From Bacteroidia bacterium (GTDB taxonomy: Bacteria > Bacteroidota > Bacteroidia > UKL13-3), in the NCBI GenBank assembly GCA_041665785.1, contig JBAYIE010000006.1:38021-102020 (forward strand): DNA of 64,000 bases. The letters are read 5' to 3'. A program made the position numbers and the translations under genes. Under the pieces are notes generated by a model. It was not told the origin of the DNA. It ran no database searches and was given only the letters and a program-made list of their open reading frames with translations. This document shows positions 1 to 60,501 of this stretch, one piece after another; position 1 is the first letter of the stretch; the number at the start of each line of letters is the position of its first letter.

Positions 1-52
1 TCCGGTAGCAAAAGAAAAATGGACTGCGCCTTTAACATCTCTTTCCGTTGCG

Positions 53-1357
53 TTGCAGGAACAATTGAGTTCAACCAATATGGAGTTTCATCAGGATGGC
101 AATTCCCTGTATATTGTAGGAGGATATGGTTACAACGCTTCAACAGCGAGTCGTAAAACATTTGCTAATTTAACGGCGATCAACGTACCCGCAGTAATAA
201 ATGCTGTAATTGCAGGGACTTCCTTTGCTTCGTATTTCCGGCAACTCACTGATGTACAATTTGCGGTAACGGGTGGACACCTGAAAAAAATAAACAATAC
301 CTTTTACCTCGTTGGTGGCAACAAGTTTGACGGCGATTACAATCCCATGGGCAACCCAACCTACACACAGGTTTACACCAATGCCATCCGCAAATTTAAT
401 ATCGTTGATAACGGAAACACCATTACCATTTCACATTTACCCACCATTACTGATGCAGTAAATTTGCATCGGCGGGATTACAATGCCGTGCAACAAATTA
501 TGCCAAACGGAGCCGAAGGAATTACCGCATTTTCGGGAGTGTTTCAGCCAACCGTTAACCTGCCCTATTTAAACGCAGTGAATATCGATAGCACTGGCCA
601 TTCGGTAAACAATGCATTTCAGCAATTTTACAATCATTACCATTGCGCTGTATTGCCTCTGTATTCGGCGGTTCACAATCAGATGCACAATGTGTTTTTT
701 GGAGGCATTGCACAATACTACGACAGTGGTGGAATATTAGTACAGGACAACAATGTTCCTTTTGTTAAAACCATCGCCCGTGTTACCCGCGATGCTAATG
801 GAACAATGGCCGAATACAAATTACCTGTTGAAATGCCGGGTTTGCTGGGTTCCGGAGCCGAATTTATACCCATCACCAGCGTGCCTCACTTTGCAAACGA
901 AATAATTAAACTGGATGATCTGACTGCAGACAGCACTCTGGTAGGCTATATTTATGGTGGTATAAGCAGTACAGCTGCAAATATCTTTACCACCAATACC
1001 GGAACTCAAAGCAGCGCCAGCAGCCAGATTTTTAAAGTTTATGTAATTACCAACTCGCTGGTGGGAATGCATGAACTCAATGTGCAAAGCATAGGAACAT
1101 TGAAAATGCAAGTGTTTCCAAATCCCAACAGTGGCAGCTTCCAGATCCGTTTTAATCTGAACAAATTGGCTGAAACTAAACTCTCATTGTATAATAAAGA
1201 AGGTAAGCTTGTTGAACAACGTATGTTAACACAGTTACAGGTTGGCGAAAATACCATTCAACAAAACCTGCAATCTATTGTGCCCGGTGAGACTTATCTG
1301 CTTACACTCGAAACTCCTTATGAAAAAGCGACACAGAAAATAATCATTAAGCACTAA
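53..1357 (+). CDS. Secreted protein with a T9SS (Por) C-terminal sorting domain; function unknown. Starts at TTG and may be 5' truncated.
   Basis: The C-terminus (VFPNPNSGSFQIRF...GETYLLTLETPYEKATQKIIIKH) is typical of a T9SS C-terminal domain. The ORF begins at a TTG 53 nt from the window edge, so the true start may lie upstream. Confidence 0.55.
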   Translation: MQEQLSSTNMEFHQDGNSLYIVGGYGYNASTASRKTFANLTAINVPAVINAVIAGTSFASYFRQLTDVQFAVTGGHLKKINNTFYLVGGNKFDGDYNPMGNPTYTQVYTNAIRKFNIVDNGNTITISHLPTITDAVNLHRRDYNAVQQIMPNGAEGITAFSGVFQPTVNLPYLNAVNIDSTGHSVNNAFQQFYNHYHCAVLPLYSAVHNQMHNVFFGGIAQYYDSGGILVQDNNVPFVKTIARVTRDANGTMAEYKLPVEMPGLLGSGAEFIPITSVPHFANEIIKLDDLTADSTLVGYIYGGISSTAANIFTTNTGTQSSASSQIFKVYVITNSLVGMHELNVQSIGTLKMQVFPNPNSGSFQIRFNLNKLAETKLSLYNKEGKLVEQRMLTQLQVGENTIQQNLQSIVPGETYLLTLETPYEKATQKIIIKH

Positions 1358-1526
1358 AATTAAATAAACCGGCAGTAGGTAGCCTGACCTTATAAACGAC
1401 TTCGTGTACTTCGCATTTAATACGTAAAGCCTTTTTTGAATCACCTGTTTCGCTCATGACTGAAATTGGAATCCCGCGATAATTTAACATCCGCCTTACC
1501 TTACTTTTAGTACAAATACGCTAAAC

Positions 1527-4073
1527 TTGTTCATCAATCACATGAACATGAAAAAATGGATCGCCCTTGGCTTTAGTATATATTCAACCTTCCTGCAAGC
1601 CCAAACATCTCTGCCTGCAGCCTGGAATTTTTCATCGCCCGGCATTACATCGCCACCCATAGGCTGGACGCTTGACAACAGCCGCGCCGGTGGCACGGGA
1701 GGACAAACCTATGCATTCGGTACCGGAGATAATTTATCCTGTCGCTTTGATGCCGCCGGTGAAAACCTGATCGTATTTTTCGCCGATAAACCCGGACCCC
1801 TGAGTTATTATGTGAGTCCGCAAAATGCCGGAAATCCCTGGTCAGGTTTGTTTGAAGTACAGGAAAGCGCCGATGGAAATTCCTGGTCAAACCTGCGCAC
1901 GTTTACCAGTCAGGCTACTACCACTACCAATTTTACAAACGGCAAACGCAGCGACAATCTTTCTGCAACTACACGCTATGTGCGATTTGTGTTTACTACC
2001 AAAACAAGCGGAAACTTTGCGCTCGACAGCGTACTCATACAACAGGCACCACCACCGTTAAACGCCAGCATTCAAATCAAACAAAACGGGAATGTAATAG
2101 TAGGTGGTTCTACTTTTATACTTGGCAATGCATCGGCCACAACCTTTACTATCGAAAACAAAGGCACCGGACAAACCCTGCACCTCGATTCGGTTTCGTT
2201 TAGCGGAACAACGCCCAATGATTATTCGGTGAGCAACTTTCCGGACTCCATTATTGCAAACGGTAATGCGACTTTTACCCTGAATTTTTCAGCAGCTCAA
2301 AACGGAAGTCGTAAAGCCGCTATGAATATTTACAGCAATGATGCCGATCGACCCAAATACACCATCAACGTTTACGGAATAGGCGGAAACTATGCTACCG
2401 AACCCGCTCAGCCTCCGGTGTTAAACACAAGCAATGTGATGACTTACGGATTTGATGCGACCTTGTTGGCGCCTGTGCAGGTACCCGAGCATTATATTGT
2501 GCTCTTGTATAAAAATGGTGCCGGCGACGACAAACCGATGGATGGTGTAACCTACAAACGCGGCGATTATATTGGCGCAGCGCAGGTGCTGTATGTGGGC
2601 GATAGTGCAAGCCTGATAAAACCTACCCATATACTATCAAATACAGGTTATGCAATGAATGCCTTTTCGTTTAATGGTCCAGCCGGTTTTGAAAATTACT
2701 ACACCACCAATTCGGCCTTTCGCGGATTGATCACTCCCGGTAAAAAACCGGGTACGTATTATAGCGGAATCAACTCGGGCGCACCCAATTTTGTAAGCAC
2801 CCTGTCGCAAAAAATCAATCCGCACGATACCATTTATTATAGCCAATACATTTCACGCTTTATTCAACCTTACCTGACACGCGATACGATTGGGGGCAAA
2901 AAAATAATGAATTGCGTTTATACAACACTTCCTTATGTGTACACCGAACCCTTCCTGTTCTGGAATGGCACAAACGGAGCTACCCTAACCCGCGAACATA
3001 CCTATCCGCAAAGCTGGATGCCAACCCGCAGCCTGCCTACCTGGCCCAATGATGCAAATGGTAAAGAACTGCCTGAATACAACGATTTGCATCATTTGTT
3101 TCCGGCCGATCAGGCGTATGGAAATGGCGTACGCTCAAATTATCCGTTGGGAGAAGTAGTAACCAACCCACAACCTTCTCCGAGTGGTTTGGGTGTATTG
3201 GGAAAAGACCTCAACGGTAATACCGTGTACGAACCCACCGATGCACATAAAGGCGATGCAGCACGGGCCATCTTTTATATGTGTACGGCATACAACGGCA
3301 TCAGCGGAAACAATTGGTCCATTCCTTCATCGCAGGATCAGGATGTATTGAAGAAATGGCATTTTCAGGACTTGCCGGATAATTGGGAAATTGCCCGTCA
3401 TGAATTTATTTATTCCATTCAACACAACCGCAACCCGTTTATCGATAGCATCAATTTTGCATGCCGCATTGACTTCCGCAACATGACCTGGATAGCGAAC
3501 CCGGGCAGTTGTGGTATCGACGAGCGCCGGGTAACTGTGCTGACCCCAAATGGCGGACAAGATCTTAAAAGTGGTACCATTACCCTGGTAATGTGGGATA
3601 GCTATGCCATAGATTCTGTAAAAATAGAACTCTACCACGCCGACACCTTCTTTGCCTATTTAGGAAAAGAAGAAGCAGCACGCGAAAAGTTTTTCTGGAA
3701 AGTAGGATACCATACCGAAACCCTGAAATCCAGCGATTTTAAAATTCGCGTAACAGATCTCCATTCTCCTGCCTTTGACCTAAGTGACGATTATTTCAAA
3801 ATCGAATTCCTCCTCAATGCTCTGGACGAAATAAATAATACATACGATCTTCAGGTTTACCCTAACCCAACCTCGGGCACAGTATATCTGCAAGCTTTAA
3901 ACGGACTACAAATCCAATCCATTCGTGTATTGGATTTGCTGGGAAAAACACATTATGAAAATTCAATCCATGCAGATAATCTTGCCCAAATTCAATTGGA
4001 TAAAAAAGGAATGTATTTGGTTGAAGTAGTAACAGATCGGGGAGTGGTGAGGAAAAGGGTGGTGAGGGAATGA
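1527..4073 (+). CDS. Extracellular endonuclease I family nuclease with N-terminal beta-sandwich domains and a T9SS C-terminal domain.
   Basis: Signal peptide MKKWIALGFSIYSTFLQAQ. Endonuclease I motifs REHTYPQSW, LHHLFPADQAYGNGVRSNYPLGEV, DAHKGDAARAIFYMCTAYNG and HNRNPFIDSINFACRID. C-terminal VYPNPTSGTVYLQ...VVTDRGVVRKRVV looks like a T9SS sorting domain. Confidence 0.75.
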   Translation: MFINHMNMKKWIALGFSIYSTFLQAQTSLPAAWNFSSPGITSPPIGWTLDNSRAGGTGGQTYAFGTGDNLSCRFDAAGENLIVFFADKPGPLSYYVSPQNAGNPWSGLFEVQESADGNSWSNLRTFTSQATTTTNFTNGKRSDNLSATTRYVRFVFTTKTSGNFALDSVLIQQAPPPLNASIQIKQNGNVIVGGSTFILGNASATTFTIENKGTGQTLHLDSVSFSGTTPNDYSVSNFPDSIIANGNATFTLNFSAAQNGSRKAAMNIYSNDADRPKYTINVYGIGGNYATEPAQPPVLNTSNVMTYGFDATLLAPVQVPEHYIVLLYKNGAGDDKPMDGVTYKRGDYIGAAQVLYVGDSASLIKPTHILSNTGYAMNAFSFNGPAGFENYYTTNSAFRGLITPGKKPGTYYSGINSGAPNFVSTLSQKINPHDTIYYSQYISRFIQPYLTRDTIGGKKIMNCVYTTLPYVYTEPFLFWNGTNGATLTREHTYPQSWMPTRSLPTWPNDANGKELPEYNDLHHLFPADQAYGNGVRSNYPLGEVVTNPQPSPSGLGVLGKDLNGNTVYEPTDAHKGDAARAIFYMCTAYNGISGNNWSIPSSQDQDVLKKWHFQDLPDNWEIARHEFIYSIQHNRNPFIDSINFACRIDFRNMTWIANPGSCGIDERRVTVLTPNGGQDLKSGTITLVMWDSYAIDSVKIELYHADTFFAYLGKEEAAREKFFWKVGYHTETLKSSDFKIRVTDLHSPAFDLSDDYFKIEFLLNALDEINNTYDLQVYPNPTSGTVYLQALNGLQIQSIRVLDLLGKTHYENSIHADNLAQIQLDKKGMYLVEVVTDRGVVRKRVVRE

Positions 4074-4118
4074 GGAGGTATGTTGAGTAGCGCATATAAT
4101 TAAGTTAGTGGCAATTTT

Positions 4119-4709
4119 ATGAAAACTCTCATAAAGACATTTATTCTAATTTTAACTCTTGGCTTTACTGCACAAGGACAGACCAAGGATGTTCCTCTAT
4201 TTGACGACTATTCAATTATTAATAGGACTGTTGACAGTTTACTGAAGATCGGAACTAAAGAAATAGTCGTTTTTCAAACAACAAGACCATTCAAATATTT
4301 AAAAAGTTCGGACAGCATACTAACATTTATTTGTTGGCAAATCGCTGACAATTCTATCGTACAAATCGTTACTGATAAAATTGTTTACTCACCTCTTGAC
4401 TTTAATGGCAAAGAGATATTCACCTACAAAGACAAAATTAAAACACTAGTAACAGAGAAGGAAGAGAGCCAATGTACCTTGCAAATGATTGCTCCTGTTA
4501 TCAGCGGTAACGTCTTGTTTTATTATAGCAAAGAGCTCATTGGATACTTTGAGCACCCAGAGTCAAATAGTCCAACTAGGTATAAGCCACAGGTTGACAA
4601 AGAAAAATACCGATCTACTTGGTACAACTTAATCTATAATGTACTGACAAAAGAAAACTTTAATTTCAAAGGCCTTCCTAATTACGACAGAAGTGCCGGC
4701 TATAAGTGA
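4119..4709 (+). CDS. Hypothetical secreted protein or lipoprotein in an AT-rich islet.
   Basis: Signal peptide MKTLIKTFILILTLGFTAQGQ. GC is about 35%, well below the flanks. I recognise no domain. Confidence 0.5.
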   Translation: MKTLIKTFILILTLGFTAQGQTKDVPLFDDYSIINRTVDSLLKIGTKEIVVFQTTRPFKYLKSSDSILTFICWQIADNSIVQIVTDKIVYSPLDFNGKEIFTYKDKIKTLVTEKEESQCTLQMIAPVISGNVLFYYSKELIGYFEHPESNSPTRYKPQVDKEKYRSTWYNLIYNVLTKENFNFKGLPNYDRSAGYK

Positions 4710-4864
4710 AGAATCAAAACCAGCCACTAACAGCGCCCTTGCGTCAGTTGGGTTTAATCCTTAATTTGTACATTCGTTTCACTTGCTAGCTTTTCGCTCG
4801 GACGACTGTGACTGCGTCGCGTCATCCAACAGAATGCAAAGCCGCAAAACGTTCAGGTAATTAT

Positions 4865-5800
4865 ATGAGGACAGCCATAATATTAATCATATTATTCTCG
4901 AGAGTTTGTGCTACTGCTCAAGCGCCAATACTTTTTGAAACTCCTATTAACGTAACGATAAAAGGTTATTCCCGGAACTACTTAGCTGCGGCCATTTACA
5001 AGAAAAAAGAACCGTGGCAACAGACATCAAAAGTTGAATTTTGGTTTAATTCTAGGGGTTTAATAATACAATCAAGATTTTGGGGTAAACAACATAATTC
5101 AAATCTGAAGCTTCTAAATAAAATTACACAATACGAATACGACTCTAATGAATTAAGAATATCTAGTCAAGAATGGGAAAATTCATACCTAGATTCCATC
5201 AAGTTAAGTAACAAGACATTATATACATACGACAACTATAAAAGACTAATAAAAAAACAAATATTTTCACCTAATGAAAACAATCCTTCCTCCACAGTTG
5301 AACACATATATACTGGTGTAAAAGGTGAGGGTTTATTTACCACAATTAGTGGGGGAACAAAATACATTTATGTTTATGACAGTTTAAATCGCCTTAAATC
5401 TAGAAAACAATTTTATGGATCTAATTTGGACAAACTTAACTGGATAGAAACCTATTTTTATTTAGATGACACAACAATATGCATTACCAATGTGTTTTAT
5501 GGAGATTCTATCTTACAATATTCAAAGCAAAATATCACGATTTATAATTTGAATAAAAAGGAAATCGCCATCATTGAAGACTATCTTCCTCCAAAAGAAT
5601 CGTTCCCAGATAAAACAGAGTTTGAATACGATAAACAAGGACTGATTCTATCAATTAAAAGATACCTAAGGCTCAGTTTTAAAAGTGAATATATCCTAAC
5701 TTCATTTATTAAATACTCATATAGGCGCCCAAAATATATTGGCCAAAAATCAATTGAAAAAATTAATCAGTCACTTATAAATTTAGACAGCGGAGAATAA
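4865..5800 (+). CDS. Hypothetical secreted protein with YD-repeat-like motifs in an AT-rich islet.
   Basis: Probable start at MRTAIILIILFSRVCATAQA (the ORF track begins earlier, at 4808). Motifs YTYDNYKRLI, YVYDSLNRLKS and EFEYDKQGLILS resemble the Y.YD..(G/R)L repeat of RHS/YD proteins. Low GC. Confidence 0.5.
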   Translation: MRTAIILIILFSRVCATAQAPILFETPINVTIKGYSRNYLAAAIYKKKEPWQQTSKVEFWFNSRGLIIQSRFWGKQHNSNLKLLNKITQYEYDSNELRISSQEWENSYLDSIKLSNKTLYTYDNYKRLIKKQIFSPNENNPSSTVEHIYTGVKGEGLFTTISGGTKYIYVYDSLNRLKSRKQFYGSNLDKLNWIETYFYLDDTTICITNVFYGDSILQYSKQNITIYNLNKKEIAIIEDYLPPKESFPDKTEFEYDKQGLILSIKRYLRLSFKSEYILTSFIKYSYRRPKYIGQKSIEKINQSLINLDSGE

Positions 5801-6045
5801 CTACCACTAACTATAATGAAGATTTCTTGAGCATACAAAAATGATCGAAAAGAATATTTCAATCTATCCAAATAGTTTATTTCTTTGAACGAACAAGTAG
5901 TTGCCCGACTGACTTTGTCTGATTTATAAACTAAGACTATTGAAAATTCACCAGATATCAGGAATAAACTCCTGATCTCAGCATTTGTTCTCTCCGTTTA
6001 TTTTCCTTAGCTTCACCCCTCCTCCGCTTTTGCCTTAAAGGATTT

Positions 6046-6657
6046 TTGACCCCGCGTATTTCATTCACATCCATAAATTTGATTCCTATGCTGGAAATAT
6101 TCTCAACCCTCGACCCTTTGCTCAAAACCTTTTGGTTTGTGGCTATACCGGCTTCGCTGATTTTTATTATTCAAACCATCCTGACTTTTATGGGTGCCGA
6201 TGCTTCCGATGGATTAGAAGCCGACTTCGACGGTGATTTCAGCGGCGGCGACGAATCCTTTCAGGTGTTCTCCCTGCGCAACCTGATCAATTTTTTGCTG
6301 GGTTTCAGCTGGACCGGCATTTCGTTTTATACCACCATCTCCAATCCGCTTGGTTTAATTTTGTTTTCACTGATAGTCGGTGCATTGTTTGTATACGTAT
6401 TTTTCATCATCATCAGACAAGTACAAAAACTGGCTGAAGATAATTCATTCAAACTGATCAATACACTCAACCAATCGGCTGAAGTTTACCTCACCATTCC
6501 CGAACATAAAAGCGGAAAAGGCAAAATCATGATCAGCGTAAAAGGCGCTTTTCACGAGCTCGAAGCCATGACCGATCAGGATCGCATTCCATCCGGTGCA
6601 ACCGTTAAAGTGGTACGCATTGAGAACAACAATGTATTAATTGTAGAAAAAATTTAA
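6046..6657 (+). CDS. YqiJ / NfeD-like inner membrane protein, partner of the downstream flotillin.
   Basis: N-terminal transmembrane helices, an acidic stretch DASDGLEADFDGDFSGGDES, and a C-terminal beta-rich tail KGKIMISVKGAFHELEAM...VKVVRIENNNVLIVEKI resembling an NfeD OB-fold. It lies 10 nt upstream of a flotillin gene, as in E. coli yqiJK. The real start may be the internal MLEIFS. Confidence 0.55.
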   Translation: MTPRISFTSINLIPMLEIFSTLDPLLKTFWFVAIPASLIFIIQTILTFMGADASDGLEADFDGDFSGGDESFQVFSLRNLINFLLGFSWTGISFYTTISNPLGLILFSLIVGALFVYVFFIIIRQVQKLAEDNSFKLINTLNQSAEVYLTIPEHKSGKGKIMISVKGAFHELEAMTDQDRIPSGATVKVVRIENNNVLIVEKI

Positions 6658-6667
6658 CCCAAACCAT

Positions 6668-8185
6668 ATGAGTCCTATTATCCTTATTGTCGTAGCGGCA
6701 GTTGTCATCTTTGTTACCATCTCTGCACTGGTTTCCCGTTATAAACGTTGTCCTTCCGATAAAATATTGGTTATATACGGACGTACCGGCGGAACCTCTG
6801 CCAAATGTGTGCACGGAGGCGGAGCATTTATCTGGCCTGTAATACAGGATTATGCATTCCTTGATCTGAAACCCCTTTCCATTGAAGCCAACCTCACCAA
6901 TGCATTGAGTCGTCAGAATATTCGTGTGGATGTTCCCTGCCGTTTTACGATTGCCATCTCTACCGAAGCAGATAGTATGAATACAGCGGCCGAACGTTTG
7001 CTCGGACTTACATCGGAACAGATTCAGGAACTGGCCAAAGATATTTTGTTTGGTCAGTTGCGTTTGGTAATTGCTACCATGACCATCGAAGAAATCAATT
7101 CTGATCGCGATAAATTTCTCGACAATATTTCGAAAAACGTAGACAGTGAACTCAAGAAAATCGGATTAAAGTTGATCAACGTTAACGTAACAGATATCAA
7201 GGATGAGTCGGGGTATATTGAAGCATTGGGTAAAGAAGCCGCAGCCAAAGCGATCAACGAAGCTAAAATCAGCGTAGCCGAACAGGAGAAAATCGGAGAA
7301 ACCGGAAAAGCAATGGCAGATCGCGAAAAGGATACACAGATTGCAGAAACGCATCGTGATCGCGACGTAAAAATTGCCATCACCCAAAAAGATAAAGAGA
7401 TCAGCATTGCCACCGCCGTAAAAGACGAAACTATCGGTAAAGCAGAAGCCGAACGCGATACGCGTGTAAAAACTTCGGAAGCAAATGCCATTGCCATTCA
7501 GGGCGAAAACGAAGCGAAAATTTCCATTGCCAAATCAGATGCTAACCGTCGCGAAAAAGAAGCGGAATCGCTGCGCATTGCACTGGCTTCTGAAAAAGTA
7601 CAACAAGCCAAAGCGCTGGAAGAATCTTATGTAGCCGAACAAAAAGCCGAACTGGCACGATCCGAACGCGAACGTTCCACCCAGATCGCCAATATTGTAG
7701 TTCCTGCCGAAATAGCCAAACAACGCGCCATCATCGAAGCGCAAGCCATGGCCGAAACCATTCGCGAAAATGCAAAAGGTGAAGCCGATGCCATCTTTGC
7801 AAAAATGGAAGCCGAAGCAAAAGGATTGTTTGAAATCCTCACCAAGCAAGCCGAAGGTTACAAAGAAGTAGTAGCTGCAGCCGGTGGCGATCCTACAAAA
7901 GCTTTCCAATTGCTCCTGCTCGAAAAATTACCGGAACTGGTGCGCACACAGGTTGAAGCGGTTAAAAATATCAAGATCGATAAAATCACCGTATGGGATT
8001 CAGGCAATGGAAACAACGAAAACGGAAATTCTTCCACCGCAAATTTTGTTTCAGGTATGATGAAGACGGTTCCTCCATTGAACGACCTTTTCAATATGGC
8101 CGGGCTCAATCTACCGAATTACCTCAAGGGAAATGATGCTCCTGCGGAAGAGGATGATAAAAAAGAAAGCGGGAAGAAAGAATAA
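6668..8185 (+). CDS. Flotillin family protein (SPFH/band 7, YqiK/FloA-like).
   Basis: N-terminal transmembrane segment, then an SPFH region (ILVIYGRTGG...IRVDVPCRFTIAIS). A long EA-rich coiled coil with repeated AEQKAELARSERE / EAEAK units follows, as is typical of flotillins. Confidence 0.85.
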   Translation: MSPIILIVVAAVVIFVTISALVSRYKRCPSDKILVIYGRTGGTSAKCVHGGGAFIWPVIQDYAFLDLKPLSIEANLTNALSRQNIRVDVPCRFTIAISTEADSMNTAAERLLGLTSEQIQELAKDILFGQLRLVIATMTIEEINSDRDKFLDNISKNVDSELKKIGLKLINVNVTDIKDESGYIEALGKEAAAKAINEAKISVAEQEKIGETGKAMADREKDTQIAETHRDRDVKIAITQKDKEISIATAVKDETIGKAEAERDTRVKTSEANAIAIQGENEAKISIAKSDANRREKEAESLRIALASEKVQQAKALEESYVAEQKAELARSERERSTQIANIVVPAEIAKQRAIIEAQAMAETIRENAKGEADAIFAKMEAEAKGLFEILTKQAEGYKEVVAAAGGDPTKAFQLLLLEKLPELVRTQVEAVKNIKIDKITVWDSGNGNNENGNSSTANFVSGMMKTVPPLNDLFNMAGLNLPNYLKGNDAPAEEDDKKESGKKE

Positions 8186-8247
8186 GGTTGTTTCAAACAG
8201 TTGCTCTTTTTGTTCAACCATTTATTAGTTGAATGTATCCATAAAGG

Positions 8248-8952
8248 CTACCCAAACCTCTTCTCCACCAGCGACTGCAATTCTTTTGCCAGATCATGAT
8301 CGCTGTCCCAGCTGTACTGATGTTTCAGTTCGGTAAACAAACGCATCGCTTCATCGATATTCAACGACGAATTCAAACGGTCGATGGCCTTGGTATACTC
8401 CACTGTATTTTCATTGAACAATACATTCACAAAAGCAATTTTCTTGTTGAGCGAGATGGCTGACTTCAGGCTTTCTACCTTACCCTGCATCATTTCTGTT
8501 TTGGGGTTATTTTGTGAAATGCGTTCATGCAACAAAGGTTCTTCGTTTTGCGTTTTACTCGTACGCGAAAGGATATCCTGTAAAATAGGTTGCTCTTTAT
8601 GGGGAGGATTATTCGTTAATGGTGTATCCGTTATTGGGTTATTCGTTGGAGGTGGAATGGTTTCTTCGGGTTGAATTTCAGGTATGGCAGGTGGTGTTGG
8701 CGTTAAAACAGATTCTGCAACAATTTCAGGTGCATTGATCTGCTGATCAATCAGAGGCTTTATTTCCTCTATACTTTGCTTCACAGGATCAGGCATCTCT
8801 ATTGCCAAAGGAACTAAAATCTGAATATGCTCATACAACTCCACGCATTTGCTTTTCAGCAAAGCAATTTCCAGAGTATTGGTGGGGTGCTGACTCTTCC
8901 CGATCGCATCGGCCAGTTCCTTCACTTTTTGCATTACTTCCTGTTGATTCAT
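8248..8952 (-). CDS. Hypothetical protein with a central proline-rich linker.
   Basis: ORF with a Pro/Thr-rich stretch (TPTPPAIPEIQPEETIPPPTNNPITDTPLTNNPP). No recognisable catalytic motif. Confidence 0.45.
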   Translation of the reverse strand: MNQQEVMQKVKELADAIGKSQHPTNTLEIALLKSKCVELYEHIQILVPLAIEMPDPVKQSIEEIKPLIDQQINAPEIVAESVLTPTPPAIPEIQPEETIPPPTNNPITDTPLTNNPPHKEQPILQDILSRTSKTQNEEPLLHERISQNNPKTEMMQGKVESLKSAISLNKKIAFVNVLFNENTVEYTKAIDRLNSSLNIDEAMRLFTELKHQYSWDSDHDLAKELQSLVEKRFG

Positions 8953-9017
8953 ATAGATTTCCCTTTTTACAAAGGTCTAAAAGAAAAGGATTCAAAAAAG
9001 CATGTATTTTTACACAG

Positions 9018-9605
9018 ATGTTTTTAGAGCCCCACTTAACACAAAATCGTAAAAAAGGTTGGATCGAAGTGATTTGTGGCTCCATGTTTTCGGGCAAAAC
9101 AGAAGAGTTGATCCGCCGCCTCAAGCGCGCACGCATCGCCCATCTGAAAGTCGAAATTTTCAAACCCGGTGTCGATACCCGCTACCACGAATCAGAAATC
9201 GTTTCACACAACGCAACGGCCATTCCTTCAACTCCTGTTGAATCTTCCCTAAATATCCTGCTCATGCACAAAGATGCCGATGTAATCGGAATCGATGAGG
9301 CGCAGTTCTTCGACGATGAAATTGTCTATGTATGTGAAACGCTCGCTTCAAAAGGCATTCGTGTTGTGGTGGCCGGCCTCGATATGGATTACCTGGGCAA
9401 ACCCTTTGGACCCATGCCCAAACTCATGGCTGTGGCCGAATATGTTACAAAAGTAAACGCTGTTTGTATGGTATGCGGTGATCTGGCAACACACACCTTT
9501 CGTAAAACCAAAAACGATGCGTTGGTAATGCTCGGAGAACACGATGATTACGAGGCCCGTTGCCGTACATGTTTTTTGGAAGGGATGAAAATGCAATCAA
9601 CCTAA
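9018..9605 (+). CDS. tdk: Thymidine kinase.
   Basis: GWIEVICGSMFSGKTEELIRR P-loop and a C-terminal zinc ribbon (CMVCGD...ARCRTCF). Start chosen at MFLEPH. The ORF track extends upstream to 8802, across the divergent gene. Confidence 0.85.
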   Translation: MFLEPHLTQNRKKGWIEVICGSMFSGKTEELIRRLKRARIAHLKVEIFKPGVDTRYHESEIVSHNATAIPSTPVESSLNILLMHKDADVIGIDEAQFFDDEIVYVCETLASKGIRVVVAGLDMDYLGKPFGPMPKLMAVAEYVTKVNAVCMVCGDLATHTFRKTKNDALVMLGEHDDYEARCRTCFLEGMKMQST

Positions 9606-9646
9606 CCGATTAACGCAATAACCAATAACTTAATAACGAGTAACAA

Positions 9647-10597
9647 CTAACTCAATTGTCCCGGCTGTGCCAGATTCTCCAGCATCTCTTTCGTCATGGC
9701 ATCCAGGTCGAAACGCGGTTTCCATCCCCAATGTGCCCTTGCTTCTGCATCGTTGATGCTACGCGGCCAGCTGTCGGCAATGGCCTGACGGAAATCGGGA
9801 TTGTATTGGATTGTAAAGTCGGGAATGAATTTCTGAATGCTGGCTGCTATGCCTTTGGGATCGAAACTGATTCCTGCTACATTATAACTGCTGCGGATCC
9901 TAACTTTTTCAGCAGGCGCTTCCATCAGTTCCAGCGTTGCACGTATAGCATCGGGCATAAACATCATCGGCAACTCAGTATGTTCGCTCAGGAAGCTGGT
10001 ATACGTTTTATTTTTTAATGCTTCATGGTAAATGTGTACGGCATAATCGGTGGTTCCTCCACCCGGCGCCGACTTGTAACCGATCAATCCGGGATAACGG
10101 ATGCTGCGCACATCCACACCGAATTTCTGATGATAGTATTCGCAAAAACGTTCACCGGCTTGTTTGCTGATTCCGTAAATGGTATTCGGTTCCATAACGG
10201 TGTATTGTGGCGTATGATCGCGCGGGGTTGTCGGACCAAATACAGCTATGGAACTGGGCCAGTATACTTTTTTGATGATTCCTTCTTTGGCTGCATCCAA
10301 TACATGAAACAAGCCTTCCATATTCAGATCCCAGGCTAACTTTGGTTTTTGCTCGGCCGTTGCCGACAATAAAGCAGCCAGCAAATACACCTGAGTGATC
10401 TGGTGCTTTTTCATGATCTCATACATGGATTGTTTGTCCATCACATCCAGTTTTTCGAAAATCCCCACCTGATTTTCCAACGGACGAATATCCGAAGTGA
10501 TCACATTGTTTTCTCCGTAAACCGTTCTGCAGGTCTCAGCCAGTTCAAGGCCGATCTGGCCATTGGCGCCCATGATGAGTATTTTTTCCGTCGACAT
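9647..10597 (-). CDS. NAD-dependent epimerase/dehydratase family protein, L-threonine 3-dehydrogenase-like (extended SDR).
   Basis: GANGQIG Rossmann motif and a YxxxK-type segment (IYGISKQAGERF). Overall length and sequence resemble the UDP-glucose-epimerase-like TDH family. Confidence 0.65.
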   Translation of the reverse strand: MSTEKILIMGANGQIGLELAETCRTVYGENNVITSDIRPLENQVGIFEKLDVMDKQSMYEIMKKHQITQVYLLAALLSATAEQKPKLAWDLNMEGLFHVLDAAKEGIIKKVYWPSSIAVFGPTTPRDHTPQYTVMEPNTIYGISKQAGERFCEYYHQKFGVDVRSIRYPGLIGYKSAPGGGTTDYAVHIYHEALKNKTYTSFLSEHTELPMMFMPDAIRATLELMEAPAEKVRIRSSYNVAGISFDPKGIAASIQKFIPDFTIQYNPDFRQAIADSWPRSINDAEARAHWGWKPRFDLDAMTKEMLENLAQPGQLS

Positions 10598-10689
10598 CTA
10601 TGCTGTTATTTGGTTCGCGATATTAAAATAAACTTTTTACAAGTCGACTCAAAAGTAGTGAATGTTCATTGAATTTAATTTGAGGGAAC

Positions 10690-10975
10690 GCAATAGTGCA
10701 TCTCCGCATGATGCAGCACAACTCCGAACGATGTAGCGCATCTCCGAATGCGCGATTCCTTTCACTACAATGTTGTAGGTGTATCATTTCTCTCCCCACG
10801 TCGCGATGTTCAACCGCGTTGCGGTTTTTTGAGGAGGGGGTGTCACGTGCGGGTTATGGAGGTTGAACCGCGTTGCGGTTATGGGTTTGTTGTTGAGTGT
10901 AAGGTTAGCCCGCCTTCGCCAAAATCTTCGGCGAGGCAATGCATTCTTCATTCTTCATTCTTCATTTTAAACCCA
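10690..10975. repeat. Composite intergenic repeat locus 1: paired GCATCTCCG hairpins, two AACCGC-GTT-GCGGTT hairpin boxes and a (CATTCTT)n microsatellite box.
   Basis: gcatctccgcatgatgc and gcgcatctccgaatgcgc hairpins. tgttcaaccgcgttgcggtt and atggaggttgaaccgcgttgcggtt boxes. ggcgaggcaatgcattcttcattcttcattcttcatttt box. The same boxes recur at three other loci in the window. Confidence 0.7.
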
Positions 10976-12630
10976 TCCTCCAAACGATTCGTTCTCCACT
11001 GCAGATTCGGATCCAAAATAGATGTACAAGGTATTTCTGCATCCCAGCATTGTGCATTACCCTCCGGCATCATCACGTATCCGCCCAGAGGCAAAGGCAC
11101 ACGCTGCATGGTGTTAGTTCCATATGGAAGCAGGGTTATCAGGTTGCGTTGGAATCGGTCTGCGGGCAAATATAATTTTGTAAAAAATATACCACCGGCT
11201 ATTAATAAAACCATGCCCCCAAACATTACCCAGCGGGCTTGAAAAAGGTGATTGAAGCGAGAAATAGTAAATCGGTGCTGAAACATCCAGGCAATGTAAA
11301 ACACGAGGTATCCAAAAATAAAACGCGTAGCGGGTGCATTCATAAACCACACCGGCATAGCCAATGCAATAGTGATTAGCAACAAAGCGGAATGCTCTTT
11401 GCGAATGATTTCCTTCCAACGTTTTCTGCTCCGGCGAATCAACAAGGCAATCATCAGAAACAAGGCATCAACCACAAACAAAGCCAACAGAAATTTACTG
11501 AACAGATCCAGATGCTTAATCCATTGCACAAACCATTGGGTGAAGGGCATCTGCTTTACCGTTTCCAAATCCACACCCGGTACACGCTCGTTCGCTATAT
11601 TGATGGCGCGTTCGTATTGCAAGGTTTCTGCACGCATTTTCCAGTCTACATCAAACAAGTCCAATTGATCCACCGGATAAAGCAGGTAACCCGATTTCAA
11701 TACATTGGTTTGCAACCAGGGTGTAAACAGCAGCAGGCAAAATAAAGTCAATACTGTAATACCTTTCCGTAACACATCCAGCTTCTGCATCAACAGCCAA
11801 CCTACAGGAATAAACAATAACGTAATGGCAGATAATTTAAATGTAACCATTGTTAAAAATACCAGCAAAAGGGGTGCCCGCTTTCTCCAATCGGAAACAG
11901 GTTGTTGAATCCATTCGGTAAATGTGATCAGTGTTAATATGGTGATCGCATAATCGTTGGTAACTGCACCCACATATTTTCGGTAGGCCATCAAAATCAG
12001 ATACAAAAAGATGACGCCCTTTAAAATGAAATTCGGATCGTTTTTGCGTGGAATAAAATACACGGTAGAAACAATCAGCAATAAAGCATTGAGTACATAA
12101 ACCGATTTCAATCCGAAGAATCCCATGCCGAAATAAGCATGCAGCAAAAACCAATTTGAATTATTGCCCAACTGCCTGCGCAAATTCCCTAAACCCTTCA
12201 CTACCGGAAATTGTTCGTCCCAACGAATGGCCTGCAAATGATAATCTCCAATATCTCCAACTCCTGCTCTGCCGGCCAGATTGAGGATAGCCGCACAAAA
12301 CACAACCATAAAAAAAATCACGTGCAAGGGCGATCCAAAACAATCCTGTTTGAGCTGTGTCAGGTATTTATTCCATTCTGCTTTAACCGGCAAAACCAAA
12401 GCAGTTAGCACCATCAATATCAGCAGGTGCACCATCCATCCCATGGGCAAAAACAAGTGCAGGATTTGTAACAGCAGGGCATCCAGACATAGACCCGGAA
12501 CCAGCAAAAAAAGTGCATGTGAAACTGTGAATTCGGTTCTGAGCAATTTCGAGAAAAGGTGTAAACAAACGATGCCGGAAACCCAGGCAACCAGAAAAGC
12601 ATAGATCAGAAATATTGCAGCGGACAGCAC
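10948..12630 (-). CDS. Polytopic integral membrane protein of unknown function.
   Basis: 560 aa with a dozen or more hydrophobic helices. The last seven codons (KMKNEE-stop) are encoded by the CATTCTTCATT repeat box. Confidence 0.55.
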   Translation of the reverse strand: MLSAAIFLIYAFLVAWVSGIVCLHLFSKLLRTEFTVSHALFLLVPGLCLDALLLQILHLFLPMGWMVHLLILMVLTALVLPVKAEWNKYLTQLKQDCFGSPLHVIFFMVVFCAAILNLAGRAGVGDIGDYHLQAIRWDEQFPVVKGLGNLRRQLGNNSNWFLLHAYFGMGFFGLKSVYVLNALLLIVSTVYFIPRKNDPNFILKGVIFLYLILMAYRKYVGAVTNDYAITILTLITFTEWIQQPVSDWRKRAPLLLVFLTMVTFKLSAITLLFIPVGWLLMQKLDVLRKGITVLTLFCLLLFTPWLQTNVLKSGYLLYPVDQLDLFDVDWKMRAETLQYERAINIANERVPGVDLETVKQMPFTQWFVQWIKHLDLFSKFLLALFVVDALFLMIALLIRRSRKRWKEIIRKEHSALLLITIALAMPVWFMNAPATRFIFGYLVFYIAWMFQHRFTISRFNHLFQARWVMFGGMVLLIAGGIFFTKLYLPADRFQRNLITLLPYGTNTMQRVPLPLGGYVMMPEGNAQCWDAEIPCTSILDPNLQWRTNRLEDGFKMKNEE

Positions 12631-47639: not shown

Positions 47640-50600
47640 CTACCGGTTGATGACGATCCGTTTGTTGGTTACCGAGTTATCTATTCTCAAATTGATCCAG
47701 TAAACTCCCGACGACTGACCTGATAAATCAAGGTTGAAGGAGCCGGCATTCAGTTCCTTCTCTCCTTTATAAATCACTTTACCCAAAACATCGACCACCT
47801 CTATGCTTACCCGGAATGCAGCTATATCTTGTAACGATACGGTTACATGACCATCTCCGCTTGGGTTTGGATAAATCCTGGCTGCATTCAAAAGATCTAA
47901 ATCCATCAATCCGCTCTTGATGAAATTGAATGCATCGCTGATGCTTTTGCAATTGGAGGCATTTCCTGTTTCCACCGAATAATTACCATTTTGCGTGGCA
48001 ATCAGATTTTTTGAATTTGCACCACTTATGTTGTTGCCATTCAACTTCCACTGATAGGTTGCGGCAGTAACCGAACACACTAATGTATCGCTGCTGCCAT
48101 TGCGTGTAACAACCGGTTTAACCGGAAGTACATCAATTGTAACAGTTAGCGAAGCTGTTGTATCGGTGGAACAACCGGTATGCACAAGCGCCCTGTATTG
48201 ACGGGAAACAAATGCCGAAACAGTGGTGTTGGTATGTGTATACATTTCATTCGCACTTCCTGCAATAGGTATCCAACTACCCGCATTGTCTTTGAAAATC
48301 CAACCGGTTACAACTCCTCCGTTGATAAAACCACTTGCAGTAACTGCAATGGAATTTCCAGTACAATAAATTGTTGCAGTCGAAGTTGGAACCACGCTGT
48401 TCGCATTCCCCTGCAATTGGGGGTTGATGGTTATCTGCAATGTTCCGGTTGTATCGTAACTGCAGTTAGCGGTATTGAATATAATGGCCCGGTATTCACG
48501 CACCTTGGTATACGAAACATTGGTTGAAGTATGATAGAGAGTGAAGCCGTTATCGTTTATCGCAGTCCAGAAGTTCGCAACGCTGTCGCGGAACAACCAC
48601 TTTACAACACTGCCCGAAAATCCACTTACATTAATGATGGCCGGGGTACCTGCACAAATTGAAGTGTTGTTGCTGGCCGGCATAATAGCGAGATTACTTC
48701 CGTTGGTTATAATATTGATATTTACCGTTACCACTCCAGAACTATCGATGCTACAACCTGAAGTATTGTTCAACAAGGTGCGGTATTCACGGATTATATT
48801 GCTACTTACCTGTGTATTGAAATCATTGATTGATGCAGCGCTACCGGCATTCAGGTATTGCCATTCTTCTCCGGTATTCCGGAACAACCATTGCTGAATG
48901 GTATACCCAACAGGAGTATTGATAAATACATTCACCGGGTTGCCTGAACAAACAGTCAGCTGAGATGCCTGAGCCGTTGTGGCATTCACTCCATTTTGTA
49001 TCGGGTTGATGGTAACAGTGGCCGGTGCAGTGGTATCAAAACTGCATCCGGAAGAATTGATTACCAGAGCTCGGTATTGACGCACAAGCAATGAAGAAGT
49101 CTGGGTATTTACATCACTCCACGATGAAGAAGTAATATTTAAGATTTGCCAGTTATCGGTTGGATTATCGCGGTACATCCAGTATTTCACAGATGATCCG
49201 TTGAATGATCCCAGGGTGATGGTAACCAGTGCACCTGAACATACATTACTATTAGATAAAGCAGGAACAACAGTATTTTGGTTACCATATCCAATCGCAC
49301 TAACATTCACTCCAACGGATGCAGAGGTATCGGTGGGACAACCTGCACCTTTAACAACTACCACTTTATATTGGCGGGTAAATCCAGTGCTGGTTTGTGT
49401 AGCATAATCGTTGAGCGAAGTGGCTGATGTAATGGCCAGATTTGTCCAGCCTCCATTGTCTGTATTCTGCATCCAGCGTTGAATGGAATTGCCACTTCCC
49501 GGATTAACGCTGAGGTTAATCGTAGCACCTGAACATATGGACGTGCTGGCCACTGCAGGAACTATCGTATTATCGATCCCGATTGTACGCGGATTGATGG
49601 ATACGGTCTTAACGGCACTGCTGTCCATACTACAACTGTTATTGTTTTTTATGATAATACGGTACGCTCTTGTTACCGGTGCACTCACAGTAGTATTGTA
49701 ATCCGTTAAAGTTGTCGCACTTCCTGAGTACAAAGTCATCCATGGACCATTGTTGTTGCTGTATAACCAGGATTGTACCGTATGACTTCCTAGACCTGAG
49801 GTTCCTAAAATTACCGGAGTACCGGTACAATATGATCCACCATTTGAAGTCACCATGATATTGGTATCTGTGCCGAGCATACGGGGAGAAATAAAGGCTG
49901 TATCGTTGATGGAAGTTGTATCATACCGGCAACTTGCTGATTTGTAAATCAACAATGCATATTGCCGGTTAATGGCATTTGTCGTATTGGTATTGTAATC
50001 GGTTATGCTGATGGAGTACCTGTGCATATTGTTCCATGCTCCGCTGTATCCATCGCGGTACAGCCAGGTGTTTAATTGTACACCACTCAATCCATATGCA
50101 TCTACATCAATGAAGGAGCCGGTACAAACTCCCTTATTGCCATTGATTGCTGTGCTCGAAAACGTATCGGTTCCGTATATTAATGGATTGATATATACTG
50201 ACACTTCACCGGAAGTATCAAGCGTACAGGAGTTGCTCTTGCTTATTATTGCACGGTACCTGCGGTTCACCAGACTCACCGTATTTACAGACTGTATGAT
50301 GCCCGACAAAGAACTATACATAGGAATCCATGGACCTAAATCTTCACTGTATAACCAGTATTGTACAAAATTGCCCGATCCGGCATTTATATTGATATTG
50401 AATGAATTCCCTGAACAAACATTAGACCCTGATTGTGAAGTTGGAACAATGCTGTTGTCGTTTCCGTATGTTTTCGGATTAATGGTAATTACAGATGCCG
50501 CGGTGGTATCGATCCGGCAATTGCCCGCTTTATACAAAATAGCGCGATAACCCATTGTATAGGAGTTTTGTTGTGAAGCAGCAAACTCACCAAATTGATA

Positions 50601-59153: not shown

Positions 59154-59500
59154 ACCGAAAGGCGGTTATTGTTATCGGGATATACAGCAACAGGCTTATA
59201 TTGTTTGGCTTCTTCGAAATCCATGGTGGCGTATGAAATGATAATGAGGTGATCTCCCACAAAGCCTTTACGGGCGGCAGGACCATTGAGGCAGATAATG
59301 CCTGAATTGCGCTCTCCCTTGATGATATAGGTTTCGAGGCGTTCGCCGTTGTTTACGTTCACTACCTGTACCTTCTCGTTTTCGATCATATTGGCTGCCT
59401 CCATCAATGCTTCATCGATGGTAATGCTACCCACGTAGTGCAACTCCGTTTCGGTAAGTTTGGCGCGGTGTATCTTGGATTTGAGTACTTCTATTTGCAT
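59150..59500 (-). CDS. panD: Aspartate 1-decarboxylase.
   Basis: [29 protein letters not shown] with the pyruvoyl-forming G-S cleavage site. Start chosen at MQIEV. The ORF track extends 29 codons further upstream. Confidence 0.85.
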
Positions 59501-59607
59501 AAAATCGGTGCAAATGTAGGAGTAATATTTGATATTGCCTCGAAGCGAAACTATGAGTACCTTCGTCCCCTTGTATAAACTCACCATCTACGAGGTTATA
59601 CAAACTA

Positions 59608-59694
59608 CGGAGAGTTGTCAGAGTGGCCGAACGAGCGCGCTTGGAAAGCGCGTATACTGTAACAGGTATCGAGGGTTCGAATCCCTCACTCTCC
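59608..59694 (+). tRNA. tRNA-Ser (anticodon GGA), type II with a long variable arm.
   Basis: ggagagt acceptor stem pairs with actctcc. Anticodon stem gcgcgc / gcgcgt with loop ttGGAaa. TTCGAAT T-loop. Near-identical in architecture to E. coli tRNA-Ser(GGA). Confidence 0.85.
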
Positions 59695-59701
59695 GCAAAC
59701 C

Positions 59702-59730
59702 CAAAATCCCGCTTTTGCGGGATTTTGTAC
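59702..59730 (+). terminator. Hairpin immediately after tRNA-Ser.
   Basis: aaaatcccgcttttgcgggatttt: a 10-bp stem with a 4-nt loop. Confidence 0.55.
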
Positions 59731-59736
59731 GTTAAC

Positions 59737-60003
59737 GAGCACTGCGTCAAAAGCCCCAAAGCTTTTGTAAGCAGGGCGAAGTGAACGTACAACAAATTCC
59801 CGCCTAGGGAATTTGGGTTTGTTTCTCCCCCCAACGGGATCGCGCGCCAGCGCAATCTTTCCTGATTAGTTAGTTTCCGATAGCACTGCGTCAAAAGCCC
59901 CAAAGCTTTTGTAAGCAGGGCGAAGTGAACGTACAACAAATTCCCGTCTAGGGAATTTGGGTTTGTTTCTCCACCCAATGGGATCGCGCGTTAGCGCAAT
60001 CTT
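59737..60003. repeat. Two tandem direct copies of a ~122-bp element (59737..59859 and 59882..60003) downstream of tRNA-Ser.
   Basis: agcactgcgtcaaaagccccaaagcttttgtaagcagggcgaagtgaacgtacaacaaattcccg(c/t)ctagggaatttgggtttgtttctcc(c/a)ccca(ac/at)gggatcgcgcg(cc/tt)agcgcaatctt. Copies differ at about 6 positions. Each contains aattcccgNctagggaatt and aaagc..gcttt hairpins. Confidence 0.8.
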
Positions 60004-60102
60004 AAAGTATTATTTATATGTAAAATGCAATTCTTTTGAAGGATTCCCAAAAATATGCACCACCCATATTTCAATTTAAATTTGAATAAATCCAATATAG
60101 TT

Positions 60103-60501
60103 TCACTTTACCCGGAATCCTAATTCATAACAACTATTATCAGTGGGATTATAATTAAAAGTGCAACCTGAATTCTCCCGATTATTCTTTTTTAGTTTTG
60201 ACTCATCATTATATTTATTTACAGTGTCATAACACTTTCGATTTGAATAAACCATAAAGTAATAAAAAGTAAAGAAGCCGAGATAAGCCAGAGCCAAAAA
60301 AAAAATTATATAATCTCTTTCTACCTGATTGATCGTTTTTATTGAGATCAAAGTCATACCTATTGTTATACTCCAAAGAATAGTAATTATTGTCATAAGA
60401 TTTAGTGCTCCCCAGTGATGCCTATCGTTTTTTAGAAATCGAAAGAAGTCATAACATCTATAATAAAATATATTTAACAATGTCTTCATTTTACCCTTCA
60501 A
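60103..60501 (-). CDS. Small membrane protein (2 transmembrane helices), translationally coupled to the upstream Fic gene.
   Basis: 132 aa with hydrophobic segments LMTIITILWSITIGMTLISI and IIFFLALAYLGFFTFYYFMVY. Overlaps the Fic gene by 4 bp. AT-rich. Confidence 0.5.
   Translation of the reverse strand: MKGKMKTLLNIFYYRCYDFFRFLKNDRHHWGALNLMTIITILWSITIGMTLISIKTINQVERDYIIFFLALAYLGFFTFYYFMVYSNRKCYDTVNKYNDESKLKKNNRENSGCTFNYNPTDNSCYELGFRVK

Follow-up and report, generated by a model that had tools for sequence, protein, structure and literature searches.

How does a short, AT-rich islet with two genes for exported proteins come to lie between the gene of a secreted nuclease and a yqiJ-flotillin operon? 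The question is raised by a 64,000-nt stretch from a Bacteroidia bacterium (contig JBAYIE010000006.1, positions 38,021 to 102,020), called here the window, whose own coordinates are used wherever no other locus is named. An earlier note, made from the sequence, had taken the islet for horizontally acquired cargo, perhaps an orphan immunity or toxin-associated pair. Our analysis makes it highly probable that the islet consists of two separate integron-type gene cassettes, belonging to an integron-like system with a wide distribution in Bacteroidota. A defined acquisition mechanism with exact element boundaries would thus take the place of a vague AT-rich islet.

The islet is the stretch of lowest GC in the window. 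Between 4100 and 5900 we measured 33.0% GC, which corrects a previous estimate of about 35% and leaves its contrast with the flanks standing (44.2% in 1-4099 and 44.3% in 6046-12000). Among all 1.8-kb stretches of the window (mean GC 0.4265, sd 0.023), the minimum begins at 4100, about 4 sd under the mean. The GC content of third codon positions (GC3) follows the same trend, with 0.35 in gene 1 and 0.27 in gene 2 versus 0.451 +/- 0.043 in 28 other genes, the two lowest values among 32 genes measured. Both genes are open reading frames (ORFs) with hydrophobic leaders, as had been proposed, and encode proteins of 196 and 311 aa. The neighbours are also those described before: upstream, a nuclease with Endonuclease_1 and Por_Secre_tail domains, the latter typical of the type IX secretion system (T9SS), and downstream an NfeD-like/YqiJ-like protein followed by a Band_7/FloT flotillin. 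In agreement with the earlier note, a foreign origin is supported by composition, GC3, the absence of synteny and the occurrence of homologues in unrelated contexts; no syntenic conservation with similarly low GC was found in other genomes, and the tyrosine-aspartate (YD) motifs of gene 2 did not fail in profile searches.

What identifies the acquisition route is a feature that had been overlooked, an attC-type site between the two genes (4725-4858, + strand), together with core motifs at both ends of the islet. Homologues of gene 1 in loci L001 (a 701-kb contig), L002 and L003 stand in long same-strand runs of small genes with a GC of about 0.36, mostly unannotated, among which HepT/MNT, WapI, SRPBCC, YCII, ArsR, YkuD and ATPases are recognisable. 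Every intergenic space of these arrays has one imperfect palindrome TAAC...GTTA of about 130 nt, with ..ATAACAGCGGCCTTGCG.. directly 3' of the stop codon and ..CGCAAGGCCGCGGAACGTTAG.. directly 5' of the next start. Fifteen of these elements align over about 132 nt and RNAalifold predicts for them a long stem, in which 16 of 18 predicted pairs show compensatory double-sided changes; structure rather than sequence is conserved, and the sequence drifts. A covariance model built solely from these 15 sites, named R1, finds about 30 sites in the three array loci and exactly one in the window, the site between the two genes (34.1 bits, E 2e-5), which is matched over its full length (model positions 1-132) and is unique in the 64 kb whether filters are on or off. 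Run as a control on 1.83 Mb of other Bacteroidota DNA, the model matched strongly only at evident small-gene cassettes, and there no site outside gene-cassette contexts reached 18 bits (none exceeded 17). Rfam holds no such site family and gave no match. An ad hoc palindrome scanner was also tried for the detection of sites, proved too noisy and was superseded by the covariance model.

Within the R1 family AAC and GTT are invariant, and the consensus reads ..ATAAC and GTTA-NNN-GCAAT, with the A at position 4 and the A at position 11 of this core each present in 53 of 54 sites. The site of the window shows the R'' box ..CTAAC at 4727-4731, the paired arms and the R' core GTTCAGG at 4851-4857, so that here (4119-4709 followed by 4725-4858), as in L001-L003, an ORF is followed by a same-strand palindrome with ..AAC/GTT.. 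cores. The internal R' core of the window reads GTTC where 53 of the 54 family sites read GTTA; L005, the locus of the gene 2 homologue, has GTTACCGGTAAT.

The limits of the cassettes were defined by comparing relatives. When the six copies of gene 1 are aligned, flank similarity starts at GTT and runs through the gene into the palindrome, the 5' start being GTTAG(T/G/C)(G/T)G(C/A)AA(G/T)TT and then ATG. In the arrays, the 3' arm of the preceding palindrome stands upstream of this GTT; in the window and in L006 unrelated host sequence takes this place, and no palindrome arm is seen at the left boundary of the window. This left junction, the R'-type core GTTAGTGGCAAT at 4104-4115 (+), fits GTTA-NNN-GCAAT perfectly and ends 3 nt 5' of the gene 1 ATG, with the putative crossover at G4104|T4105; the solo copy in L006 carries the identical GTTAGTGGCAAG. 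Since the core pattern is matched four times in the window versus one expected, it is the position and not the motif count that is informative. The first cassette would thus span T4105 to G4851, with gene 1 at 4119-4709 (+), and the second starts at T4852, with gene 2 at 4865-5800 (+). In L006, a single cassette with a complete palindrome (68 bits) lies between the stop of a gene with a T9SS C-terminal domain (CTD), which overlaps the G of the GTT (GTTAGTGG), and a convergent gene; this layout is the signature of an attC site recombining with a secondary site. Overall, cassette boundaries coincide with the GTT core in six independent contexts. It was also observed that both solo gene 1 cassettes (window 4074-4118; L006 150-182) lie directly 3' of a co-directional T9SS-CTD gene, with nearly identical left junctions, TAATTA(A)|GTTAGTGGCAA, the core G completing the host stop codon in L006.

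Gene 2 behaves in the same way on its left side. Upstream conservation with its homologue (protein P0002, 52% identity) begins at the core GTTACCGG; in L005 it runs from GTTACCGGTAATTAT-ATG, and the window has GTTCAGGTAATTAT-ATG. On the right side, the 5' arm of a canonical R1 site directly follows the stop of the homologue in L005, whereas in the window only the R'' remnant CCACTAAC is left (5804-5811, +) and the rest of the site is gone. After the stop of gene 2 the window reads TAActaccacTAAC|tataatgaag versus TAActaccggTAAC|agcggccttgcgccattgccgtta in L005, and homology stops directly after AAC. No R1 match was obtained downstream of gene 2, filters off included, and searches by inverted repeats, folding and the model without filters did not recover the missing arm. 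The 8-mer of this remnant is present at three points of the window (4724, 5804 and, in complement, 4104), always at a cassette boundary.

That the palindromes act as recombination sites is best seen in phages. The R1 element occurs in four contigs of IMG/VR (L126-L129) and in 10-15 copies in cultured members of Muminvirus and Lillamyvirus, genera of lytic Flavobacterium phages (L130, MN812222, reverse complement of 1-9822; L131, MN812206, 1-10500; L132, MN812208, 1-10500), where the copies stand between small genes and several DNA methyltransferase genes; these repeats go unmentioned in the paper describing the phages. Between phages filifjonk9-1 and mumin6-3, whose identity is 99.6-99.9%, there are three indels, all of them whole gene-plus-palindrome units. 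At the three indel junctions the parental flanks share only GTTATAAG, GTTA and GTTA, the sequences beyond being unrelated. Because the junctions are limited to GTTA with unrelated flanks, they point to site-specific recombination of the integron attC kind; the phage cassette indels are site-specific recombination at the core triplet, and not homologous recombination between repeats. A crossover at G|TT is thus indicated both by the phage junctions, which fall within GTTA(TAAG), and by the flank homology of genes 1 and 2, which begins at GTT.

With this evidence, a route of acquisition can be proposed. A cassette would be a short promoterless unit made of 5'-TTA NNN GCAAT, a few nt, one ORF and an imperfect palindrome of about 130 nt, in which R'' ..TAAC, the paired arms, a partly conserved centre and R' G-3' would follow one another. 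A tyrosine-type site-specific recombinase would cut and rejoin at the G|TT of the R' core, so that cassettes may be excised as circles and re-inserted, usually into long arrays and occasionally at a bare GTT elsewhere. In the window, a Bacteroidota donor of about 35% GC may have supplied two cassettes, as one unit or in succession, and a recombinase acting in trans may have inserted them at a GTT that lies 30 nt beyond the stop codon of the T9SS nuclease gene, in the orientation of this gene, so read-through transcription could express both promoterless genes. Later, the gene 2 site would have been lost beyond its R'' box and the internal core changed from GTTA to GTTC. With its second site truncated and its internal core mutated, the islet would now be immobile. 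No tyrosine recombinase was found among the 14 window ORFs of 300-460 aa, the other sizes being only partly scanned; in this check 13 ORFs were scanned against Pfam, and the 316-aa ORF at 9647-10597 is an Epimerase family match. Taken together, the lack of a recombinase among the scanned ORFs, the truncated second site and the mutated core make it probable that the islet was inserted off-platform and stranded, or that it is a remnant.

Several observations weigh against the cassette interpretation. The window site, the only intact one, scores with 34 bits far under the array copies (50-130 bits), and its single-sequence fold is no better than that of shuffles (z 0.09), so that support for the site is comparative and not thermodynamic. 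The canonical 7-mers RYYYAAC/GTTRRRY are only partly matched, the window showing CACTAAC and GTTCAGG. A simple attC x GTT insertion would not be expected to truncate the site after gene 2. No integrase or tyrosine recombinase stands next to any array that we have seen, the array ends not being reached. Genes and R1 sites share a strand in all nine bacterial loci, but stand on opposite strands in every phage locus. R1 finds nothing in Polaribacter phage P12002L, whose published attC sites are active with IntI1. Finally, no empty insertion site was seen: the 80 flotillin-anchored loci include none that is syntenic, flotillin being about 90% identical across orders, and a metagenome scan with the nuclease gave relatives at <=47% identity only.

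The ongoing decay could also be accommodated if the islet was the remnant of a larger resident cassette array, that is, a set of clustered attC sites without integron-integrases (CALIN) that arose by loss of the platform and neighbours, a possibility that we take seriously but find doubtful. The truncated downstream site and the mutated internal core would fit it, as would the different R1 cassettes found at the equivalent position upstream of yqiJ in L008 and an AGCGCA 15 nt upstream of the left core that resembles the usual 3' arm. The left junction, however, has no recognisable palindrome arm, and an intact T9SS nuclease gene ends 30 nt upstream of it; L006 has a like junction for a single complete cassette between ordinary genes, and the window offers neither a further site in 64 kb nor a recombinase among its scanned ORFs. 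Insertion of stray cassettes thus remains our preferred interpretation.

Regarding the function of the cargo, gene 1 has only 5 homologues among 5.8 billion proteins, with 71-83% identity, and an R1 site adjoins every one of them that could be checked. Its dN/dS of 0.13-0.28 in unsaturated pairs indicates a real gene under purifying selection. The hydrophobic leader stops at a Gln that the gene 1 family conserves (A-x-G|Q21), as does that of gene 2 (x-x-A|Q19 in its family); leaders ending before an invariant Gln in both families fit the Q-rule described for signal peptidase I (SPI) substrates of Bacteroidetes (PMC5837995). The gene 1 protein has no match in Pfam, NCBIfam, PADLOC, PHROGs or PDB, searches of the islet cargo giving only weak hits (PADLOC E1-E2, 15.9 bits; PHROG, E 0.05), and tblastn of the cargo against 50,697 phage records gave nothing significant. 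The predicted structures of both islet proteins are of low quality (mean pLDDT, the model's own confidence measure, 34.5 and 35.7). From its sequence, the gene 1 product is predicted to be an envelope protein exported by the Sec/SPI route, with a fold that was not recognised.

Gene 2 encodes 311 aa from its ATG, while an alternative GTG start at 4808 gives 330 aa. The earlier note had quoted three YD motifs; in the 311-aa protein we find these at residues 120, 169 and 252 and a fourth, YEYDSNELRIS, at residue 90, so the count should be four. The protein matches RHS_repeat (PF05593) with 23 bits (cutoff 22) and TIGR01643 with 20 bits (cutoff 15.8), and the profile of its family (26 members) matches Rhs repeat regions of the PDB, with 8h8a at E 4e-10 and 7q97 and 8qjb down to E 1e-4. 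On these profile matches at Pfam, NCBIfam and PDB level, the YD repeats are judged genuine. Among 5.8 billion proteins gene 2 has the one homologue P0002; an exhaustive HMMER search of 1.84 billion proteins gave 38 family representatives at E<=1e-3, nearly all of about 300 aa with the same layout of leader and repeats, a few being very large repeat proteins, and the family-profile homologue search gained only one further 1-kb contig. No toxin domain, Rhs core or further domain was detected in the gene 2 protein. As a strip of YD beta-hairpins of about 290 aa it would be too short for an Rhs cage. We consider that its product is most likely a periplasmic or surface binding protein, possibly protective, and hold this with low confidence. 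The family of exported YD-repeat proteins of about 300 aa to which it belongs has so far gone uncharacterised.

These features bear on the earlier suggestion of an orphan immunity or toxin-associated pair. The horizontal origin of the cargo stood, but the functional pairing did not: a recombination site separates the genes, five other contexts have gene 1 and no gene 2, and upstream of the gene 2 homologue the 59 nt covered by its contig show no gene 1-type flank. That the genes individually are orphan immunity or toxin-associated genes drawn from arrays similar to those of recombinase-associated acquired interbacterial defence (rAID), a functional proposal compatible with arrival as cassettes, seems unlikely to us. 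Bacteroidales rAID-1 arrays, the nearest ones described from this phylum, are low in GC and co-directional, with integron-like intergenic repeats and orphan immunity genes (10.1101/471110). The L002 array contains a WapI-family immunity gene, both islet proteins are exported like immunity proteins against toxins acting in the periplasm, and gene 2 has YD repeats. On the other hand, for neither gene did we find a match to an immunity family, a toxin domain or a defence model, nor an adjacent toxin gene, Rhs core, PAAR/VgrG or gene of the type VI secretion system; the upstream gene, which lies beyond the cassette boundary, encodes a secreted, T9SS-tailed endonuclease I. The genes also travel separately, the remaining array cargo is generic (SRPBCC, YCII, ArsR, HepT/MNT, YkuD, ATPases) and no XerD-like recombinase was seen.

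Much less probable is that the palindromes of about 130 nt are regulatory or structural elements, such as terminators or promoters, repetitive extragenic palindromic (REP)-like or miniature inverted-repeat transposable element (MITE)-like sequences, and that the islet arrived otherwise, by transformation and illegitimate recombination or by a transposon. T4-type phages shuffle genes by means of repeated promoter-stem-loop modules (PeSL), which would be a precedent. The repeat centre TTTCGCATTTATTTTTATCTTGGTTGACAG is conserved, which is unusual for a mere spacer, in phages element and genes occupy opposite strands, and no recombinase was found. Nevertheless, the phage crossovers are limited to the 4-8 nt GTTA core, unlike what homologous recombination or MITE insertion produces, the gene 1 and gene 2 units keep their limits from GTT to site end in unrelated contexts, and the stems covary. 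As to whether the two genes are simply native, fast-evolving and of low GC, the lowest GC and GC3 of the window, homologues in unrelated genomes with different neighbourhoods and a mobile-cassette recombination site between the two genes leave this with next to no probability.

The centre of the R1 sites deserves a comment of its own. In attC sites the centre is normally a variable loop. In R1, the segment TTTCGCATTTATTTTTATCTTGGTTGACAG is conserved (alignment columns about 50-90; for example L002 12600-12650) and could serve as a promoter or bind a protein; the window site retains it only in part. The centre of several L001 sites also contains a nested, GC-rich mini-palindrome cccgatcccgatagctatcgggactatcggg, which brings them to 150-170 nt (L001 6560-6610, 8700-8750, 9600-9640 and 10200-10250).

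Beyond the R'' remnant, an AT-rich non-coding spacer (5812-6087, no strand assigned) reaches the likely ATG of the yqiJ-like gene at 6088; it has no ORF of note, no Rfam family and no similarity to any fetched locus. The 245 bp of AT-rich non-coding DNA with a hairpin reported before do exist (5801-6045, 34% GC; ATCAGGA-ATAAAC-TCCTGAT at 5957-5976), and nothing marks the hairpin as special: shuffled versions of the region around it fold equally well (z -0.27), the hairpin does not resemble a terminator, and a scan for sigma-70 promoters and terminators was uninformative. The -7 consensus of Bacteroidetes promoters is TAnnTTTG. A -7-like TAAATTTG lies in the spacer at 6076-6083, and L008 shares TAAATTTG-N6-ATG upstream of its yqiJ, while L076 has TAAATTTT.

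The surroundings of this operon showed R1 cassettes elsewhere too. L008, the genome with the most similar yqiJ (81%), has 2-4 different R1 cassettes directly upstream of yqiJ (within 5163-7690) and a GTTGGGGCAAT core just 5' of this gene. R1 cassettes were found within 2.5 kb of the yqiJ-flotillin operon in 3 of 80 flotillin-anchored Bacteroidota loci (L008 5163-7690; L076 1087-1676 and 4732-6426; L018 11789-13165), and none in 0.47 Mb of nuclease-anchored loci; the surroundings of yqiJ-flotillin may be a landing hotspot, the statistics being marginal (about 0.05). In L044 the 17-mer AAGTTAGTGGCAATTTT stands just after flotillin (11684-11698). The flotillin itself (window 6668-8185; loci L007-L086) is 85-95% identical across Flavobacteriales, Chitinophagales, Cytophagales, Sphingobacteriales and Bacteroidales, and its YqiJ-like neighbour only 55-81% over the same loci, which would reflect either an unusually strong conservation of flotillin or a horizontal spread of its gene.

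Plasmids and insertion sequences (IS) with R1 sites were also observed. On Flavobacteriales plasmids, resistance genes are each followed by a strong R1 site of up to 87 bits (L134 4473-6146, Empedobacter brevis pSE1-3-20kb; L135 5522-8119, Myroides odoratimimus p63039), which makes arr, lnu(H), a GNAT gene, blaOXA and the metallo-beta-lactamase gene blaMYO-1 cassettes of the R1 system. Further R1 matches lie on plasmids of Riemerella, Myroides albus, Chryseobacterium and Emticicia. In p63039, a duplicated module (L135 3185-5163 and 9244-11222) combines an IS91-family transposase with an Xer-like tyrosine recombinase of 300 aa, and each copy directly adjoins the 5' (R'') end of an R1-like site, with the junction ..GGTTTAGTTC|AACATCGC... 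This recombinase is the only one seen adjoining R1 sites; we rejected it as cassette integrase, as it reaches 166 bits versus an IntI cutoff of 265, has no IntI-specific insert and is part of an IS91 module. Two IS110-family elements, 74% identical to each other, were found in the R' end of R1 sites in unrelated loci, both adjacent or close to a gene 1 cassette (L002 about 3714-4955, L004 about 31-1260). Elements of the IS1111-attC group target attC sites in integrons, and the insertions in R1 are reminiscent of them. Elsewhere in the window, a second low-GC patch (59400-61600, down to 32% near 60.0 kb) is devoid of R1 sites and contains a Fic/DOC (SoFic-like) gene at 60498-61580 (-) adjoined by an unannotated ORF of 183 aa at 59427-59978 (-). 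An ORF of 2833 aa occupies 47640-56141 (-).

The kind of acquisition seen in the islet is ordinary, and the reach of the system into phages and plasmids is its more interesting by-product. The R1 site family appears to be little described, and it spans chromosomal arrays, lytic phages and plasmid resistance genes. We tentatively put forward, as a proposal more open to doubt than confident, a Bacteroidota-wide exchange system with its own site family and a recombinase other than canonical IntI (possibly Xer-like as in rAID-1, or host-encoded and acting in trans), which would move genes between chromosomes, phages and plasmids with occasional landings at GTT. One site family joins long chromosomal arrays, stray cassettes, the cassette turnover between 99.9%-identical lytic phages and the resistance genes (beta-lactamase, lincosamide, rifampin) that plasmids of clinical and food isolates carry. 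Should a dedicated recombinase come to light, the gene trade between Bacteroidota and their phages would become testable, and also the origin of some Flavobacteriales resistance cassettes and the kinship with rAID-1.

How does the islet compare with known systems? The gene 2 protein shares with Rhs/YD-repeat proteins the YD beta-hairpin repeats (PF05593, TIGR01643 and the match of its family profile to solved Rhs structures). Unlike Rhs proteins, which exceed 1000 aa, it has 311 aa and a Sec signal peptide, it has no core cleavage motif, toxin tip or PAAR/VgrG partner, and it belongs to a stand-alone family of about 300 aa. The closed shell of more than 700 aa of repeats, the core cleavage motifs and the C-terminal toxin that make an Rhs toxin are not seen in it.

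CALINs with methyltransferase cassettes have been reported in lytic phages, for example Polaribacter phage P12002L (Qi et al. 2023, PMC9892861). In the Flavobacterium phages, as in these phage CALINs, sites stand between genes that include DNA methyltransferases; their arrays are much longer than the published ones, and sites and genes run in opposite directions throughout.

The rAID-1 systems of Bacteroidales are defined by a 5' XerD-like recombinase and carry repeats "reminiscent of integrons" (Ross et al. 2019, 10.1101/471110). They share with the R1 arrays the phylum, the low-GC co-directional arrays of small genes, the repetitive intergenic sequence and some immunity genes (WapI in L002), the likeness between repeats resting on the description of those of rAID-1 and not on their sequences. 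The islet itself has two co-directional genes with repetitive sequence between them (33% GC, with R1 in between), within the rAID-1 definition of at least two such genes of <=41% GC. A XerD-like recombinase (>44% identity to BF9343_RS08045) was not found among the scanned window ORFs, nor did the sequence analysed from L001 and L002 extend to the start of their arrays. Unlike in rAID-1, the array cargo is mostly not immunity-like, and the hosts are environmental Bacteroidia, phages and Flavobacteriales plasmids.

The closest known counterparts are CALINs and single attC sites lacking integron-integrases (SALINs), which have been described together with integrase-mediated insertion at genomic GWT (attG) sites (bioRxiv 10.1101/2022.09.11.507474; PMC9024848; PMC8618304). 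According to Néron et al. (PMC9024848), complete integrons are almost absent from Bacteroidetes proper. A complete integron has intI, attI and a Pc promoter beside its first cassette; the islet is not one, as its upstream neighbour is the T9SS nuclease gene and no intI was found among the ORFs of 300-460 aa. It resembles CALINs and SALINs in its promoterless single-gene units, AAC...GTT palindromes and G|TT crossover, and in the long same-strand arrays found elsewhere. It also resembles them in being made of isolated cassettes in the reading direction of the upstream host gene, with no integrase nearby and with unrecognised or exported cargo; signal peptides occur in 10-30% of integron cassettes (PMC8618304). 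It differs by R1 sites of about 130 nt, the core GTTA-NNN-GCAAT, an asymmetry of 1-nt versus 5-nt spacers beside this core and the conserved centre. While a CALIN lacks an integrase and has two or more attC sites over a few kb, the window has one intact site and the 8-nt R'' remnant at 5804-5811; with its truncated site, IntegronFinder in default mode would not call a CALIN. Strictly, the islet is a SALIN plus a second, site-less cassette. We file it as a CALIN/SALIN-like stray cassette pair, its membership of canonical integrons being unproven.

A last comparison concerns the repeats (VCR) of the sedentary chromosomal integrons of Vibrio cholerae. These are homogeneous attC sites of about 125-130 nt in very long arrays of small genes and toxin-antitoxin pairs. 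The R1 system differs from them in phylum and sequence, and no IntIA-type integrase was seen. The likeness lies in homogeneous sites of about 130 nt that punctuate long arrays of small genes, and in this sense the HepT/MNT genes of L001 parallel the toxin-antitoxin pairs of the VCR arrays.

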